Source of the DNA: Shigella phage JK32
DNA: 64,000 nucleotides
Reading direction: 5' to 3' (one strand)
Sequence record: MK962753.1
Shown: piece after piece, positions 39,990 through 47,369 of the stretch
Numbering within the stretch: the stretch's first letter is position 1
Layout of the letters: each line of letters starts with the position of its first letter
The notes under the pieces: model-generated
What the model was told of the DNA's origin: nothing
Databases searched by the model: none
The model's input: the letters and a program-made list of their open reading frames with translations, nothing else
Program-made: the position numbers and the translations under genes

Positions 39990-40030
39990 GTGTGTAGTAT
40001 AGGGGATCACCGATCCCCTGTCAACAACTT
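39990..40030 (-). promoter_or_regulatory. PeSL-like early promoter cassette, copy 9
   Basis: TTGACA-17 nt (GGGGATCGGTGATCCCC)-TATACT. Confidence 0.6.
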
Positions 40031-40037
40031 TTTTGAA

Positions 40038-40514
40038 TTATTTTTCTTGATGCTCGCGCTCGTACTTTTCGAAATAAAATTCTACTGGCTGGTCGTGGAT
40101 TGACAGTAAGCCAAAGCGTTTAGCCGCTCGCAACCCCATATTGCGCTGAATGTACTTCTGGAAGTTCTCGCGTATACACTTACGCCAGTATTCTAAGCCC
40201 ATACAGCTTTTATAAAGATTGCATTGCACACACGCCGGATTCATGTTATCAAGTATATCATGCTCCGGTTTATGCATTCCTACAACCTTATACTTCCACG
40301 ATCCATCATCATTACGGGCAATTCGTCCATTTTCATCATAGACTACTTTTGAGCGTCGTAATACTGGTTTGATGTGGTCTGCGTGCCAGCGATCCCCTAG
40401 TTCCTCGCCACAATAGGCACAACGTCCACCATATTTCATTTTCAGGATCTGGCGTTGCTCTTTCTTTGACAATTTTTTAGGTTTAGGGGCTTTCGCCCCT
40501 TCATTATCACACAT
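40038..40514 (-). CDS. HNH endonuclease
   Basis: CAYCGEEL....WHADHIKP......CVQCN is a classic HNH motif; sits directly upstream of DNA ligase, overlapping its stop. Confidence 0.7.
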   Translation of the reverse strand: MCDNEGAKAPKPKKLSKKEQRQILKMKYGGRCAYCGEELGDRWHADHIKPVLRRSKVVYDENGRIARNDDGSWKYKVVGMHKPEHDILDNMNPACVQCNLYKSCMGLEYWRKCIRENFQKYIQRNMGLRAAKRFGLLSIHDQPVEFYFEKYEREHQEK

Positions 40515-42009
40515 CGAATACCTCTTTTACTGTATTTGCAGTGGTCTTGTCGTAGCGAATACGTTTGATGATCGGGAGAAATAAAGAGAACTCCGGTTCA
40601 TCTTCTTTACGTGATTTGCTGCGGATATACCCGTTGCATGTCATCTCAATGACTTTTCCAATCAGGTTATGACGGTCAGCCCATAACATTTCTCGGTCAA
40701 GTTCATTTCGACGATCGAACGGAATTACACGTTCGATACCATCATCACCTTTTTCGGTTGTAGTGTCGGTTAATCCCGATCCGGTGTTAGTCATCATTCG
40801 TCCACACGCACTACGGACAGTAAAACCGCCTACCTTATTGGGGTCTTTACTATGCGGATATACATCAACAATTTCCGCGTCGAAGTCAATCACTTCTTTA
40901 AATTTAACCTGATCTTTACTACGGCGATCTTCAAATACACCATGCAGATTTTTAAGGATAATACCTTCTAAGCCCATGTTTACATAGCGATGATATACTT
41001 CGCGAGCTTCATCGATATTGTTAACTACAGTATTTTCGATTATCTGAACACGAGGATCGTTAAGTTCTTCAACAATCTGTTTTAGTTCTTCGAATCGATC
41101 TTTATATTGCTTCGTTGCTTTCTCGTTTCCGTAATACACATCACGGTCGATAACATCCCAGACAGTGTAAACAATACATTGGGCTTCTTCTTTTGGAATA
41201 GTTCCTTTCAGTGATTTGTTGAGGATACCATTTCCGGTCTGACGATCTGCAACAACGGATTCTTTCACTGCTTCCGCTACTGGCGTTAATGGCATTTCCT
41301 CTTCTTCAAATATCCATGACAGAGTACCATCATAAACGCTCTCAACGAAGTTCTGCGCTGGTGTTTGCGAAAGGGTAGGCATATATACCAATTCGCCATC
41401 TAGAACAATTCCACGGCCTCGTAGACGCTCTAAAACCGCAAACAAATCATCAAGCCCCTGATAGGTATTACCTGAACGGGTATAGATTGCTAATGTTTCC
41501 CCGTCAATATCAGCCATACCACGAGCGCCATCGCTTTTAAGTTGTGCATATGCAGGATATTTGATATTAGCAATGGCCTTATCAGAATATGACGATGCAA
41601 GGTGGCACGGCTGCTGGGGGATCAGTTTCTTCCATACCTTGTTTGCAGTGGTAGCGGAACAACCGCATTCCAGATCACGATTCAGGACCATCATTGCAAC
41701 TTTAGCATCATCTTCTGACAAGCAAGTCAGAGTATCGGTAACTAGCTGTAATGCTGCATTACCAGTTACTTGACGCGTGGCAAGTTTATTTTTAAAGACC
41801 TGTAATGCACCGGATAAAGACAATACAGACGAATAACGCGATGGTTTATCGTATTTCTTTACGCCAAACGTAACCTGTTTGCAATATGCCAGATAAAAGC
41901 ATTCTTTCAGCGTTTCATTGCTTGCAGATTCTTTCAGAATCTTTTCTTTCAGCGATGTTTTGTCTGTTGCTGCAAGCTGATTAATGATATTAAGAATTGA
42001 CATTTTCAC
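40507..42009 (-). CDS. 30: ATP-dependent DNA ligase gp30
   Basis: 500 aa; KxDG adenylation motif (AQLKSDGARG); T4 gene 30 position. Confidence 0.9.
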   Translation of the reverse strand: MKMSILNIINQLAATDKTSLKEKILKESASNETLKECFYLAYCKQVTFGVKKYDKPSRYSSVLSLSGALQVFKNKLATRQVTGNAALQLVTDTLTCLSEDDAKVAMMVLNRDLECGCSATTANKVWKKLIPQQPCHLASSYSDKAIANIKYPAYAQLKSDGARGMADIDGETLAIYTRSGNTYQGLDDLFAVLERLRGRGIVLDGELVYMPTLSQTPAQNFVESVYDGTLSWIFEEEEMPLTPVAEAVKESVVADRQTGNGILNKSLKGTIPKEEAQCIVYTVWDVIDRDVYYGNEKATKQYKDRFEELKQIVEELNDPRVQIIENTVVNNIDEAREVYHRYVNMGLEGIILKNLHGVFEDRRSKDQVKFKEVIDFDAEIVDVYPHSKDPNKVGGFTVRSACGRMMTNTGSGLTDTTTEKGDDGIERVIPFDRRNELDREMLWADRHNLIGKVIEMTCNGYIRSKSRKEDEPEFSLFLPIIKRIRYDKTTANTVKEVFDV

Positions 42010-42469
42010 CTCGTTTTGTTAAACGTTCACGAATATCATTGAGGATACTACAAAATTCCGATTCGGTCAATATGGTCTTTAACGGATCTGATCCACCTAT
42101 GCTATGACGTAATTTCTTATTTCCGGTAGCGAGTAATGCTTTACAAAATTCTGGGTTATTCCGTGCCATCGTAACAAATGCCAGATGTACCAGTCTGTAA
42201 TAATGCTCACTCATTCGATGAATCTGGCGACCCTGAAAATATAACATGTGATTCTCAACCTTTTCAGTCCTTCCGGTTCTTTTTGCTTTGCCACCGTGCA
42301 TCAAAAAGATTTCTCTTTGTCTCTGAGGGTTCTTAAATCTTAGACCCTGTAAAAATCCTTCTGTGCTGTTAATATCGCAACCAAATAGACGGAATGGTCT
42401 TTTATTGAAGTTGCTCAATTCACCCGATGGATAAGGTCCACCCGCATAGATATCAATTTCAGAAGTCAT
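41990..42469 (-). CDS. NADAR/YbiA-like (DUF1768) protein
   Basis: YAGGPYPSGELSNFNKRPF...SEHYYRLVHLAF resembles the NADAR domain signature (G..LSNF ... EH.YQ). Confidence 0.55.
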   Translation of the reverse strand: MTSEIDIYAGGPYPSGELSNFNKRPFRLFGCDINSTEGFLQGLRFKNPQRQREIFLMHGGKAKRTGRTEKVENHMLYFQGRQIHRMSEHYYRLVHLAFVTMARNNPEFCKALLATGNKKLRHSIGGSDPLKTILTESEFCSILNDIRERLTKRGENVNS

Positions 42470-42623
42470 TGAAACTAATCTCGCTAATCAGAGAGAACGG
42501 ATCATAATCGTCATTAGGAATATCGATAGTAATCGAGTGAGGATTTACCCATACACCAAACTGGTCTTCTTCGGTGAATACTTCGGTATGGATTTCGTGG
42601 ATGTTTACATTCATAGTTTTCAT
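42459..42623 (-). CDS. Small hypothetical protein (54 aa)
   Basis: ATG with RBS AAGGAA; overlaps start of NADAR-like gene. Confidence 0.35.
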   Translation of the reverse strand: MKTMNVNIHEIHTEVFTEEDQFGVWVNPHSITIDIPNDDYDPFSLISEISFNDF

Positions 42624-42704
42624 AATAAAATTCCTTAATAATCAATAACTTACAAAATCATATAGCCAAAATATAGGCGGGATTATTTCCCGCCGTTTAA
42701 ATCA

Positions 42705-43028
42705 TTAACCGTAAACTACCACAATATTCTGTTTGTGTGTTACAGTCCATTTCAGGTCGATCTCTTCTTCCTTCTTAACGCCGTTAATAACGTCTGGATG
42801 AGGAACTTTATTAAGTTTCCCATGAGGAAGCAATACAGTCTTGCCCAGCAATTCTTTATCTACAGTTTCACCAATATCAATAATCTTACCTACCAGCGGA
42901 ATCTCGCCCATAGTGCGCTTTTGCTCAATAATGATCCCCATAGAGCTTTTTACTTCGGTCCCTGCGCTTTCTGCTTTAGCTTCGATAATTACATAATCAC
43001 CAAGTGCTTTAGGAGTTTTAACGGTCAT
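42705..43028 (-). CDS. 31: Co-chaperonin gp31 (GroES-like)
   Basis: 107 aa; GroES/gp31-like pattern (YVIIE...GIII...VPHP) and T4 synteny. Confidence 0.8.
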   Translation of the reverse strand: MTVKTPKALGDYVIIEAKAESAGTEVKSSMGIIIEQKRTMGEIPLVGKIIDIGETVDKELLGKTVLLPHGKLNKVPHPDVINGVKKEEEIDLKWTVTHKQNIVVVYG

Positions 43029-43069
43029 AATTTTATTACCTCTTCAAATCAATACAGTTTAATGATGAA

Positions 43070-43390
43070 TTATTTATAAATTTCGACGATCTGCGCTGGA
43101 GTCAGCCCGTCTACATTAATCAGACTATCAAGCCCAAAACTACGGAAACCTTCAACTGCAATTTCATATACTGGCAAAGATGTTTCTGATTCTTTACGCG
43201 GTTTTTCAACATTCGGAACTAACCACTTTTCGTATGTTTCAAACGGCATCAGTGCCGGATCTCTCGTAGCGATCATCTCGCGGACAGTACCATCTTTCTT
43301 AGTAAACTGCAAAGAGTGAGTACCGACCGAAAACATTTTCTTTAGTGCTTCACGAAGTGCGATATTATCAATTTGTTCGGTCATTATCAA
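43070..43390 (-). CDS. Hypothetical protein (106 aa)
   Basis: ORF between cd and 31; start uncertain (overlaps cd end). Confidence 0.5.
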   Translation of the reverse strand: MIMTEQIDNIALREALKKMFSVGTHSLQFTKKDGTVREMIATRDPALMPFETYEKWLVPNVEKPRKESETSLPVYEIAVEGFRSFGLDSLINVDGLTPAQIVEIYK

Positions 43391-43883
43391 TACCCTTCAA
43401 ATCAGTCAATAATGCTTTTGGAATACGCGTGATCGTAATATCTGCATTATTAAGAATATCAGCCCAATCACGCCCACCATTTCGATCATATGTGTCGCAA
43501 TAGTATAGATGTTTAATTCCACTGTTTGCAATTGCTTTAGCGCAATCTGGACACGGTGAAGCAGTACACCACATACTAGCACCTTCAATCGATACACCGC
43601 TACGGGCAGCAAACAAAATAGCATTTAATTCAGCATGGATCTCGTTTTTCTGTGACCATGCACTATGTTCTGGTCGTTTTTCTGGGATCATTTTGCCGTC
43701 ATCATCCAGCCAACCGCTTTTATGTGCATGACAGCTACAATTTACTTGCCCTGCTGGAGTGCCGTTAAATCCAGTAGAAATGATTCGCCCGTCTTTTTCA
43801 ATTAGTGCGCCTACCTTCCACGAAACGCATTTAGAGTTCTTTGCGATTAGATAGGCGATCTGCATGTAAGTTTGTGACAACAT
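43368..43883 (-). CDS. cd: dCMP deaminase
   Basis: Zn-binding deaminase motifs HAELNAI and SPCPDCAKAI. Confidence 0.88.
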   Translation of the reverse strand: MLSQTYMQIAYLIAKNSKCVSWKVGALIEKDGRIISTGFNGTPAGQVNCSCHAHKSGWLDDDGKMIPEKRPEHSAWSQKNEIHAELNAILFAARSGVSIEGASMWCTASPCPDCAKAIANSGIKHLYYCDTYDRNGGRDWADILNNADITITRIPKALLTDLKGIDNDRTN

Positions 43884-43904
43884 AATATAATCCTCACATA
43901 TTAA

Positions 43905-44108
43905 TTAACCGTATACGCGAAAGTATTCTACTGATCCGTCGCTATACTGTTTTACATTGAATGTATTCACACCATGATCATTGCTCATAATGACATATAC
44001 ACTACGACGCTCATCACCAAACGGGTTAACTGGTGCGGGTTCAATTTCAACATTAAAACCACGTTTAGCAAGTGCTTCGCCTAATTGCTTGAGTTTATCG
44101 GTAAACAT
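43905..44108 (-). CDS. Hypothetical protein (67 aa)
   Basis: ORF upstream of cd. Confidence 0.5.
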   Translation of the reverse strand: MFTDKLKQLGEALAKRGFNVEIEPAPVNPFGDERRSVYVIMSNDHGVNTFNVKQYSDGSVEYFRVYG

Positions 44109-45802: not shown

Positions 45803-46972
45803 TTACCAATCAATCTTATCAGCCGGAATTAGTTTCTTATAATTCCGTAGATAGTAAGTTTTCATTGAAGCCAGAATACGGTCATAATCAAGACCATCAA
45901 ATGCAATCATCAGACACATGAAAATATATGCTTGTGCATCACCATGTTTACGTGATTCGATAGTCGCATTGGATGCATATGTCTTTCTGTCTTCTCCCGC
46001 GTGTGCGTTATAAAATTCTGTTGCTGTCGTGAAGGCATTGCGAAGAATAGACCTGAATGCTTCCTCGAATAGCTCGATTCGTTCCAGTGCTTCCGGTTCG
46101 CCTTCATATGCAGCACGCAAATCATCGGTTTCACTTTCTACGACATAGTAGATCAGGTTATTAGGAAACATCGATGTGTTTTTAATGTTATGCACACCAA
46201 TATACCATTCACTCTTCACCTTGAACATTTGACCGTCTTTAGTGCGTGCAACAATTCCTTCGATACCTTCTGCGGTCCGAACTTCATCAAGAATATTGCT
46301 AAAACGCGCTGAATCAACCTGTAACGCATTTACCAGATGAGGACGTAGGATTGCATCAGCAAATAGCATTTGATGCGGTACATACTCTCCTGTGACGTTA
46401 TGGCGTACATTCAGAAGTGTTAGCGACGGTTCAGAATATTCTACAACAATTCGGTTGCTGGGTGCTGTATATTCAAAGTTGAAAGTATAATCAGACCCGA
46501 TATCGGCGATCTTAGCGCGTAGATCCGCATACTTCTCTGAATACAGAAGACCGTTTGCTCTCTCCGCTTGGCTTGAGTACAAGGCCGCTTTAGACTTCAA
46601 CTGAACATAGCCGTTATCAATGTATGTGCTTACTAGACTACCGTCCATTTTGTCCATGACCATTTCCACATCTTCCGGCTTAAAGCGAGAGCGTTCATTC
46701 TCACCTAAATTAAAAAACTTCTCCATAGGACGAGATGCAATGCGGACAGGTCGGTCTTTATCATCGATTTCAAACATGATCCCGCGACACTCTAACGCAT
46801 CTGGTTTATTCCACATTTCCGGTTTGCTCAAGTACAAATAACTAAAAATGCGCATACGGGTTTGCATCGCCGTAATTTCATCTTTGTAATAGAACGTATC
46901 AGATCCGTCACATAGTGTCATCAGATTTTTGAACAATGCTAAAACTTTTTTGTTGTTTTCTTTTGTTGACAT
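45803..46972 (-). CDS. rnlA: RNA ligase 1 (gp63)
   Basis: Resembles T4 RnlA (PDALECRGIMFE, VRIASRPMEKFFNL, KxDG-type motif DKMDGSL). Confidence 0.88.
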   Translation of the reverse strand: MSTKENNKKVLALFKNLMTLCDGSDTFYYKDEITAMQTRMRIFSYLYLSKPEMWNKPDALECRGIMFEIDDKDRPVRIASRPMEKFFNLGENERSRFKPEDVEMVMDKMDGSLVSTYIDNGYVQLKSKAALYSSQAERANGLLYSEKYADLRAKIADIGSDYTFNFEYTAPSNRIVVEYSEPSLTLLNVRHNVTGEYVPHQMLFADAILRPHLVNALQVDSARFSNILDEVRTAEGIEGIVARTKDGQMFKVKSEWYIGVHNIKNTSMFPNNLIYYVVESETDDLRAAYEGEPEALERIELFEEAFRSILRNAFTTATEFYNAHAGEDRKTYASNATIESRKHGDAQAYIFMCLMIAFDGLDYDRILASMKTYYLRNYKKLIPADKIDW

Positions 46973-47369
46973 AATTTGTGTTCCATTCTGGTTTAAATTT
47001 GGTGATCAAAACAGGTTCTTCGATATCGGCAGTGCTTATAATATCTTTACCCGTTGGATTCTCTATGTACAACTCAAAGCACTGGCGGTAATAGAATGTT
47101 ACTGTCTTCCCTTCCTCTAGCGCCTTATGAATATTCTTACTCTTGCGAGTATCCGCCGTTGGTGTCTGTCTGTTAATGCTAGTCCGGTAATAGTTGATCC
47201 GCTTTCTGAGATTAACAGTCTGACCAATGTATACCAGTTCATCATCAACCGCAATAGCGTAAAGAACATTTAAACGGTTCTTCTGAGGCGGTAGAATCAC
47301 ATCACCATCTTTACACTCTAAACATGAATATTTAACGAATCCATAGTTTTCTATTAGCTCATTAATCAT
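46908..47369 (-). CDS. GIY-YIG homing-endonuclease-like protein
   Basis: VLYAIAVDDELVYIGQT....R fits the GIY-(10 aa)-YIG spacing plus conserved Arg; overlaps rnlA start. Confidence 0.6.
   Translation of the reverse strand: MINELIENYGFVKYSCLECKDGDVILPPQKNRLNVLYAIAVDDELVYIGQTVNLRKRINYYRTSINRQTPTADTRKSKNIHKALEEGKTVTFYYRQCFELYIENPTGKDIISTADIEEPVLITKFKPEWNTNYVNKRKQQKSFSIVQKSDDTM

Follow-up and report, generated by a model that had tools for sequence, protein, structure and literature searches.

What is the small gene that lies directly against the DNA ligase gene of Shigella phage JK32, and would its product protect the phage from host DarTG1? The window analyzed here is a stretch of 64,000 nucleotides from this phage (MK962753.1). 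A preliminary description of it had proposed that the gene encodes a NADAR/YbiA-like protein that may reverse the ADP-ribosylation of guanine by DarT-type toxins, a plausible anti-DarTG function. This is the function published for the gp30.3/AdfN family on the basis of the T4 protein; the proposal is therefore supported, but it is not new. The question raised by the locus is how far this function carries over to a protein with an arginine at the position of a catalytic lysine.

Phage NADARs were defined bioinformatically by De Souza and Aravind, as cited in passages of PMC11543638. In that paper, Schuller et al. (Mol Cell 2023; PMC11543638) reported that NADARs reverse the guanine-N2 ADP-ribosylation introduced by DarT1 and mapped the catalytic residues. 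In purified form, T4 gp30.3 removes ADPr from guanine and not from thymine, yet uninfected cells are not rescued from DarT1 by it; across NADARs, activity in vitro is uncoupled from protection in vivo (Toxins 2024; PMC11125620). In the work of Johannesman et al. (Nat Commun 2025; PMC11825919), gene 30.3 was identified as the determinant of DarTG1 resistance in T-even phages and given the new name adfN (anti-DarT factor NADAR); AdfN proved necessary and sufficient against DarTG1 in T-even infection. In an independent transposon screen, 30.3/adfN was conditionally essential on DarTG1 hosts and dispensable without DarTG1. A 2026 paper (PMC12945103) reported that the T4 phage NADAR removes G-ADPr; for C-ADPr, its summary table names the "NADAR" and "YbiA NADAR" families only, and the phage NADAR is absent. 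The family and its anti-DarTG1 mechanism were already published in 2023-2025.

Results

Gene 30.3 and its neighborhood

Positions 40000-44000 of the window are about 98% identical to Krischvirus phages, for example JSE, KFS-EC and FL37. The following features make up the locus:

40507..42003, minus strand: gene 30, ATP-dependent DNA ligase, 498 aa (Pfam DNA_ligase_A_M, E 4.3e-22)
41990..42469, minus strand: gene 30.3/adfN ortholog, coding sequence of a phage-type NADAR domain protein, 159 aa
42459..42623, minus strand: 54-aa acidic ORF upstream of 30.3 (phrog_15277, E 3.7e-42)
42676..42694, minus strand: terminator-like GC-rich hairpin with T-run after gene 31 (pattern match only)

The reading frame lies exactly where it had been placed before, at 41990..42469 on the minus strand. 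It runs uninterrupted from ATG to TAA, and its 159-aa product contains both of the strings that had been quoted from it, YAGGPYPSGELSNFNKRPF (residues 8-26) and SEHYYRLVHLAF (residues 87-98). Pfam Phage_30_3 (PF08010) matched this protein with 130.3 bits (cut-off 36 bits; E 5.6e-38) over profile positions 2-138 of 138, and PHROG 652 matched it with an E value of 4.7e-45. By BLASTP, residues 2-152 of T4 gp30.3 aligned collinearly with residues 3-150 of the window protein (38% identity, E 1e-28). An exhaustive phmmer search against 1.84 billion cluster representatives returned 987 relatives at E<=1e-3, of which 436 reached E<=1e-10. Homologs were found by tblastn in 1509 phage records, mostly of T4-like myoviruses infecting Escherichia, Klebsiella, Aeromonas, Acinetobacter and Vibrio, and some of them carry the annotation "swarming motility YbiA-like protein". 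In the RefSeq record of JSE the gene is already named "30.3", with the product "hypothetical protein".

The ligase coding sequence (1497 nt, matching the JSE and KFS-EC RefSeq records) likely starts at the ATG at 42003, which has a GAGGT Shine-Dalgarno sequence upstream and overlaps the stop of 30.3 by 14 nt. An HNH endonuclease gene lies downstream of the ligase, and both neighbors were thus as first described. On the other side, the 54-aa ORF and the start of 30.3 overlap by 11 nt, and this arrangement makes translational coupling of the two likely. The same position is occupied by a 54-aa ORF homolog (41% identity) in L005, a metagenome contig with a 69%-identical relative of the 30.3 protein. 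Homology of the 54-aa ORF to T4 gp30.4 was rejected, as a comparison of the two showed no similarity. The hairpin at 42676..42694 is a putative terminator that may mark the upstream edge of a block consisting of the 54-aa ORF, 30.3, the ligase and the HNH gene. Beyond it lie gene 31 (Cpn10-like) and genes for a WYL_2 protein, dCMP deaminase, polynucleotide kinase/phosphatase and RNA ligase 1 (Pfam). This order matches that of the T4 early region (cd - 31 - 30.x - 30), and likewise that of Acinetobacter T4-like phages. Taken together, the PF08010 score, the full-length alignment with T4 gp30.3 and the T4-like gene order identify the gene, as judged from its sequence, as the Krischvirus (RB49/JSE-type coliphage) ortholog of T4 gene 30.3 (adfN).

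The nearness of the ligase had also been taken as a hint of function, and this part was not upheld. A functional linkage was rejected on comparative gene order: in T4, two unrelated genes, 30.1 and 30.2, stand between 30.3 and the ligase; in an Acinetobacter T4-like phage, one gene separates them; and in Vibrio phage ValKK3 the homolog adjoins a deoxyribonucleotidase and gp47/46-type exonuclease subunits, ligase annotation being absent within 3.5 kb on either side. The adjacency is inherited synteny and gives no support to a ligase-coupled repair role.

Fold and superfamily

Assignment to the NADAR superfamily was borne out by the profile and fold evidence. When the family profile was compared with E. 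coli YbiA, hhalign aligned 135 columns (95.1%, E 2.9e-8), and hmmsearch detected the YbiA structure 2b3w with an E value of 2.5e-4. YbiA was the best sequence-profile match, and the register of the LSNF and SxExxxQxxK motifs was kept in the profile alignment with it. An AlphaFold2 model of the 159-aa protein, built from an 85-sequence alignment from which the T4 row was left out, had a mean pLDDT of 96.1 and a pTM of 0.90. This model resembles NADAR structures only, with YbiA as joint-best structural match, and Foldseek returned the same three structures. The YbiA fold, a helical core flanked by two small beta-hairpins, is present in the model as it is in solved NADARs.

The result with Pfam was divided. 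PF08010 matched strongly, but the Pfam NADAR model itself (PF08719) remained below threshold (16.9 bits versus a cut-off of 35.1, E 0.008). This score means that the sequence model is too distant, and it has no bearing on NADAR superfamily membership; the assignment rests on the fold and profile evidence, not on this score. A single-sequence phmmer search against the PDB found no NADAR; its top match was a D-alanine carrier-protein ligase (7vhv, E 7e-4), which is weakly echoed by NCBIfam DltA (E 0.15). We judged the 7vhv match to be due to chance because the confident AlphaFold2 model resembles NADAR structures only. The sole NCBIfam match was to "DS32_2 NADAR family anti-phage protein", far below threshold (14.6 bits versus 240). 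No PADLOC defence-system HMM matched the 159-aa protein or T4 gp30.3, and PADLOC therefore provides no DarG1-type link. Ten longer multi-domain relatives were scanned with Pfam for fusion partners. Their extra regions were mostly unannotated, with one LRR_5 and one alpha/beta hydrolase, and none of them gave a functional lead.

Active site

Residue conservation was counted in a MAFFT alignment of 159 domain sequences, and a second alignment (A1) contained 86 sequences. The residues of interest are encoded as follows:

42407..42418, minus strand: codons of L18-S19-N20-F21, the N-terminal NADAR "LSNF" motif, aligned to YbiA "FSNF"
42338..42367, minus strand: codons of S35-TEGFLQGL-R44, the equivalent of NADAR SxEHxxQxxK, aligned to YbiA TSEHYFQAQK
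42359..42361, minus strand: codon of E37, equal to T4 E36
42338..42340, minus strand: codon of R44, where T4 has K43
42104..42106, minus strand: codon of H122, the phage-NADAR histidine of the last strand, aligned to T4 H123
41996..42064, minus strand: codons of the C-terminal helix, residues 136-158 (DSSP on the AlphaFold2 model, high pLDDT)

All of the near-invariant residues of the 159-domain alignment are present in the window protein (L18, S19, N20, F26, S35, E37, G38, L40, Q41, Q51, G59, A62, G80, R85, H122, G125, T132, L134, T135, E138, F139, L143 and R147). The departures from the alignment are three: position 44, W78F and W70K.

Two strings had been read as NADAR motifs, and one of the two readings stood. 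The LSNF of YAGGPYPSGELSNFNKRPF aligns with the YbiA motif, and L18, S19, N20 and F26 are conserved at 94-98% among the 159 aligned family domains (L18 in 150, S19 in 153 and N20 in 156 of them; N20 is invariant in A1). The SEHYY of SEHYYRLVHLAF (residues 87-91) had been taken for the NADAR SxEHxxQ motif, which both the profile and the hhalign alignments place instead at residues 35-44 (STEGFLQGLR). In the hhalign alignment, residues 80-87 form an 8-residue insertion relative to YbiA, and residues 88-98 stand opposite an unrelated YbiA helix.

E37 is found in 157 of the 159 domains and is invariant in A1. Its aligned counterparts are T4 E36 and, in YbiA, the Glu of "TSEHYFQ"; the equivalent catalytic Glu is E43 in PnNADAR and E88 in E. 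coli C7. H122 is a His in 156 of 159 members and stands opposite the Glu of YbiA "LVEH" (hhalign). A His in place of the catalytic Glu (YbiA type) or Asp (DarG1 type) is the hallmark of gp30.3-type NADARs (PMC11543638; PMC11125620). The C-terminal helix is intact and exceeds that of T4 by 7 residues, with T132, L134, T135, E138, F139, L143 and R147 conserved. Loss of this helix cripples the allele of RB69, which is inactivated when its last 15 residues are missing (PMC11825919).

Arginine at the catalytic lysine position

Among the active-site positions of the alignment, E37 and H122 are present, and the position of the catalytic Lys holds Arg. Position 44 is Lys in 147 of the 159 domains and Arg in 9. 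It corresponds to the pyrophosphate-binding Lys that follows the Glu by seven residues (T4 K43, E. coli C7 K95, PnNADAR K50), and R44 retains the basic charge. Besides the window protein and its 97%- and 69%-identical relatives, Arg is carried by six more relatives in the alignment, and E37 and H122 are intact in five of these six. Arg occurs sporadically in several unrelated sub-lineages and does not define a clade with other coordinated changes.

The change matters because exactly this mutation, K95R in the NADAR of E. coli C7 DarG1, retained hydrolysis in vitro and did not rescue cells from DarT1 in vivo (PMC11543638). T4 AdfN is impaired by E36A, by K43A and by the C-terminal truncation, K43A giving partial rescue only (PMC11825919).

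L005 is an independent metagenome contig with the same gene order. Relative to its 69%-identical ortholog, in which E37, R44 and H122 are kept, dN/dS was 0.10, a ratio that is approximate since dS is near saturation; relative to JSE and KFS-EC it was 0.10-0.15. The gene is full length (100%) in the listed close relatives, among 59 tblastn matches at 95-99% identity. With dN/dS at about 0.1, the Arg lineage is under purifying selection.

Discussion

In our view, the product of Krischvirus 30.3 is a minimal, core-only NADAR enzyme of the phage type, which most likely counters DarTG1 as a guanine-ADP-ribose DNA glycohydrolase; we put the probability of this reading at roughly 0.75. The present analysis establishes the family membership of the protein, its NADAR fold, the presence of E37, H122 and the C-terminal helix, the synteny of the locus and the purifying selection on the gene. 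Enzymatic activity and the anti-DarTG1 role come from the T4 literature, and we infer by analogy that they would carry over to the Krischvirus protein despite the 38% identity and the Lys-to-Arg change. Early in infection, the 30.3 protein would be made from a transcript that spans the 54-aa ORF, 30.3 and the ligase. It would then bind the ADP-ribose that the host DarT1 toxin places on guanine N2 of phage DNA; R44, a Lys in most relatives, may coordinate the pyrophosphate, while E37 and H122 may flank the distal ribose. Cleavage of the N-glycosidic bond by the 30.3 protein would restore replicable DNA and permit growth on DarTG1-carrying E. coli.

T4 gp30.3, that is AdfN, is the closest point of reference. 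The two proteins share PF08010, full-length collinearity, the core-only NADAR fold, the catalytic Glu (E36 in T4, E37 here), the phage-type His (H123 and H122), an intact C-terminal helix and a neighborhood between genes 31/cd and 30. They differ in having K43 in T4 and R44 in the window protein, which is also longer by 7 C-terminal residues. The loci differ as well: 30.1 and 30.2 are present in T4, whereas 30.3 of the window lies directly against the ligase and its upstream ORF is unrelated to 30.4. The phage belongs to Krischvirus, outside Tevenvirinae, unlike T4.

DarG1, a DarT1-linked antitoxin of the BC4488 subfamily (E. coli C7; G. lovleyi structure 8bat; PMC11543638), has a catalytic Asp where the window protein has His, and it carries an N-terminal extension of the YbiA fold, whereas the NADAR core of the window protein begins at residue 4 (159 aa versus 219 residues in the 8bat chain and 229-234 aa in full-length DarG1). 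The DarG1 gene is adjacent to darT1, whereas the window gene is a phage-borne orphan beside the 54-aa ORF and the ligase, with no PADLOC match. E. coli YbiA (PDB 2b3w), an N-glycosidase, has Glu rather than His on the last strand and lacks the insertion at residues 80-87; its gene belongs to a LexA-regulated host operon, whereas the window gene lies in the early region of a lytic phage. AdfN-Bas32 (T5-like) and AdfN-Bas60 (Vequintavirinae) are likewise phage-borne orphan NADARs and are active against DarTG1 (PMC11825919). That paper assigns them to NADAR clades (archaeal-like and bacterial non-YbiA) different from the gp30.3 clade, to which the window protein belongs.

Krischvirus is a genus of Straboviridae outside the subfamily Tevenvirinae. 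The phages tested by Johannesman et al. were all Tevenvirinae, and AdfN-T4 was fully effective only in T-even/Tevenvirinae infections, possibly needing a partner (PMC11825919). In the searchable literature and supplements, we found no test of Krischvirus, RB49 or JSE against DarTG, and the passages of the supplement of Schuller et al. covered here hold no Krischvirus entry among the phage-NADAR accessions. The points that speak against the main reading are the Arg at the catalytic Lys, the identity of 38% to the tested T4 protein and the position of Krischvirus outside Tevenvirinae, together with the sub-threshold Pfam NADAR score and the empty PADLOC search. The possible partner of AdfN-T4, moreover, may or may not exist in Krischvirus.

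Other readings of the protein start from R44. It is conceivable, but unlikely, that the protein is an active NADAR glycohydrolase whose main target is not DarT1-modified DNA, and that the Lys-to-Arg change reflects a shifted specificity; the substrate would then be RNA guanine-ADPr, the product of another ADP-ribosyltransferase toxin or a soluble ADP-ribose derivative. Such a target is consistent with the removal of RNA G-ADPr by all NADAR families (PMC12945103), with the argument of Aravind's group for a possible preference of phage NADARs for ADPr derivatives of low molecular weight (PMC9503650), with the fixation in the Krischvirus lineage of R44, a minority state (9/159), and with the uncoupling of activity from protection among NADARs (PMC11125620). 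However, protection against DarTG1 is the sole in vivo role demonstrated for the gp30.3 family, the remaining active-site residues are all as in T4, and the scatter of Arg over unrelated sub-lineages shows no coordinated changes that would define a clade. We give little credence to the idea that the protein is a weakened allele which keeps the NADAR fold, may hydrolyse its substrate in vitro and, owing to R44, does not protect from DarT1 in vivo, as with DarG1 K95R or the inactive RB69 allele. The K95R result in E. coli C7 (PMC11543638) and the partial rescue by T4 K43A (PMC11825919) point in this direction, but the dN/dS of about 0.1 across the Arg-bearing lineage, the retention of R44 at 69% protein identity and the full-length gene in the listed close relatives among the 59 matches argue against it. 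Wild-type T4 AdfN also fails to rescue uninfected cells, yet protects the phage, and the rescue assay in uninfected cells is therefore not predictive of counter-defence.

Two further readings depend on the resemblance to YbiA and on the adjacent ligase. The protein could do the housekeeping work of YbiA, either as an N-glycosidase for intermediates of the riboflavin pathway or in a function related to swarming; this would fit with YbiA as the best sequence-profile and joint-best structural match and with the swarming annotation of some phage homologs. Such a role is nevertheless highly improbable: His replaces the defining Glu of the YbiA subfamily (PMC11125620), the protein falls in PF08010 and not in PF08719, and there is no apparent call for riboflavin damage control in a lytic T4-like phage. 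Equally hard to credit is an accessory repair factor that cooperates with the ligase, for instance by clearing lesions ahead of the ligation step. The 30.3 and ligase genes are co-oriented, and the stop of the one overlaps the start of the other by 14 nt, but the intervening genes of T4 and the Acinetobacter phage and the surroundings of the ValKK3 homolog speak against a partnership, as does the dispensability of T4 adfN on hosts without DarTG1.

The glycohydrolase reading thus concerns a mechanism that is already published, and nothing new was learned about the mechanism itself. The result confirms that a real counter-defence gene can be recovered by a reading made from sequence alone. Phages of the JSE and RB49 type are annotated "hypothetical protein" at the locus and can now be listed as adfN carriers; this re-annotation bears on the prediction of host range for DarTG1-positive E. 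coli. It is a speculative and rather doubtful proposal that the Krischvirus AdfN, with an Arg fixed at a 92%-conserved Lys position under purifying selection, is a functionally shifted phage NADAR, whether through independence from the T-even "potentiating factor", through use of the 54-aa acidic protein as a partner or through another ADP-ribosylated substrate. If this were true, a comparison with T4 AdfN could reveal the determinants of NADAR specificity in vivo, which published papers leave open. The Lys-to-Arg change, being a natural variant, offers a ready means of probing why in vitro activity does not predict in vivo protection.

Gene organization around 30.3

The gene 30.3, an ortholog of the T4 gene encoding AdfN, is embedded in a minus-strand block with the following features.

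40038-40514, minus strand: HNH endonuclease gene, with an 8-nt overlap at the 3' end of the ligase gene
40507-42009, minus strand: ligase ORF as mechanically listed, starting at GTG 42009
42459-42623, minus strand: acidic 54-aa ORF, overlapping the 30.3 start by 11 nt
42676-42694, minus strand: GC-rich hairpin followed by a T-run, directly after gene 31

Judging by the RefSeq CDS lengths in the Krischvirus phages JSE and KFS-EC and by a GAGGT Shine-Dalgarno sequence, the ligase more likely starts at ATG 42003 than at GTG 42009; with that start, its gene and the 30.3 stop would overlap by 14 nt. The hairpin may be a terminator that divides gene 31 from the block formed by the 54-aa ORF, 30.3, ligase and HNH genes. 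No convincing sigma-70-like promoter was found between this hairpin and the 54-aa ORF.

The 54-aa ORF matches PHROG 15277, and its counterpart (41% identity) occupies the same coupled position at the locus of a 69%-identical 30.3 relative. It is unrelated to T4 gp30.4. Since T4 AdfN may require an additional phage partner, we regard this ORF as a candidate partner of the 30.3 protein.

Mobile endonuclease genes vary near the 30.3 locus: KFS-EC carries an extra HNH gene directly upstream of gene 31 (L006, its locus here, 293-904), which is not present at this position in the window, and the alignments of several close relatives are split into two pieces over this region. At its start, the RNA ligase 1 gene shares 65 nt with a GIY-YIG-domain ORF, which is probably a homing-endonuclease-like insertion.

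45803-46972: RNA ligase 1 gene
46908-47369, minus strand: GIY-YIG-domain ORF (153 aa), 65-nt overlap

Relatives of the 30.3 protein

Residues 45-151 weakly matched the D-alanine carrier-protein ligase DltA in a single-sequence search (PDB 7vhv, E 7e-4), and the NCBIfam DltA match was also weak (E 0.15). This relationship was taken as chance because the predicted fold gives it no support. Many of the metagenomic gp30.3-domain proteins (P0016-P0062) are 250-540 aa long, and the long relatives contain tandem gp30.3 domains or fusions with unannotated regions. In one protein the fusion partner consists of BspA-type leucine-rich repeats, and in another it is an alpha/beta hydrolase (UPF0227). The gp30.3 family is one that extends far beyond the T4-like phages.
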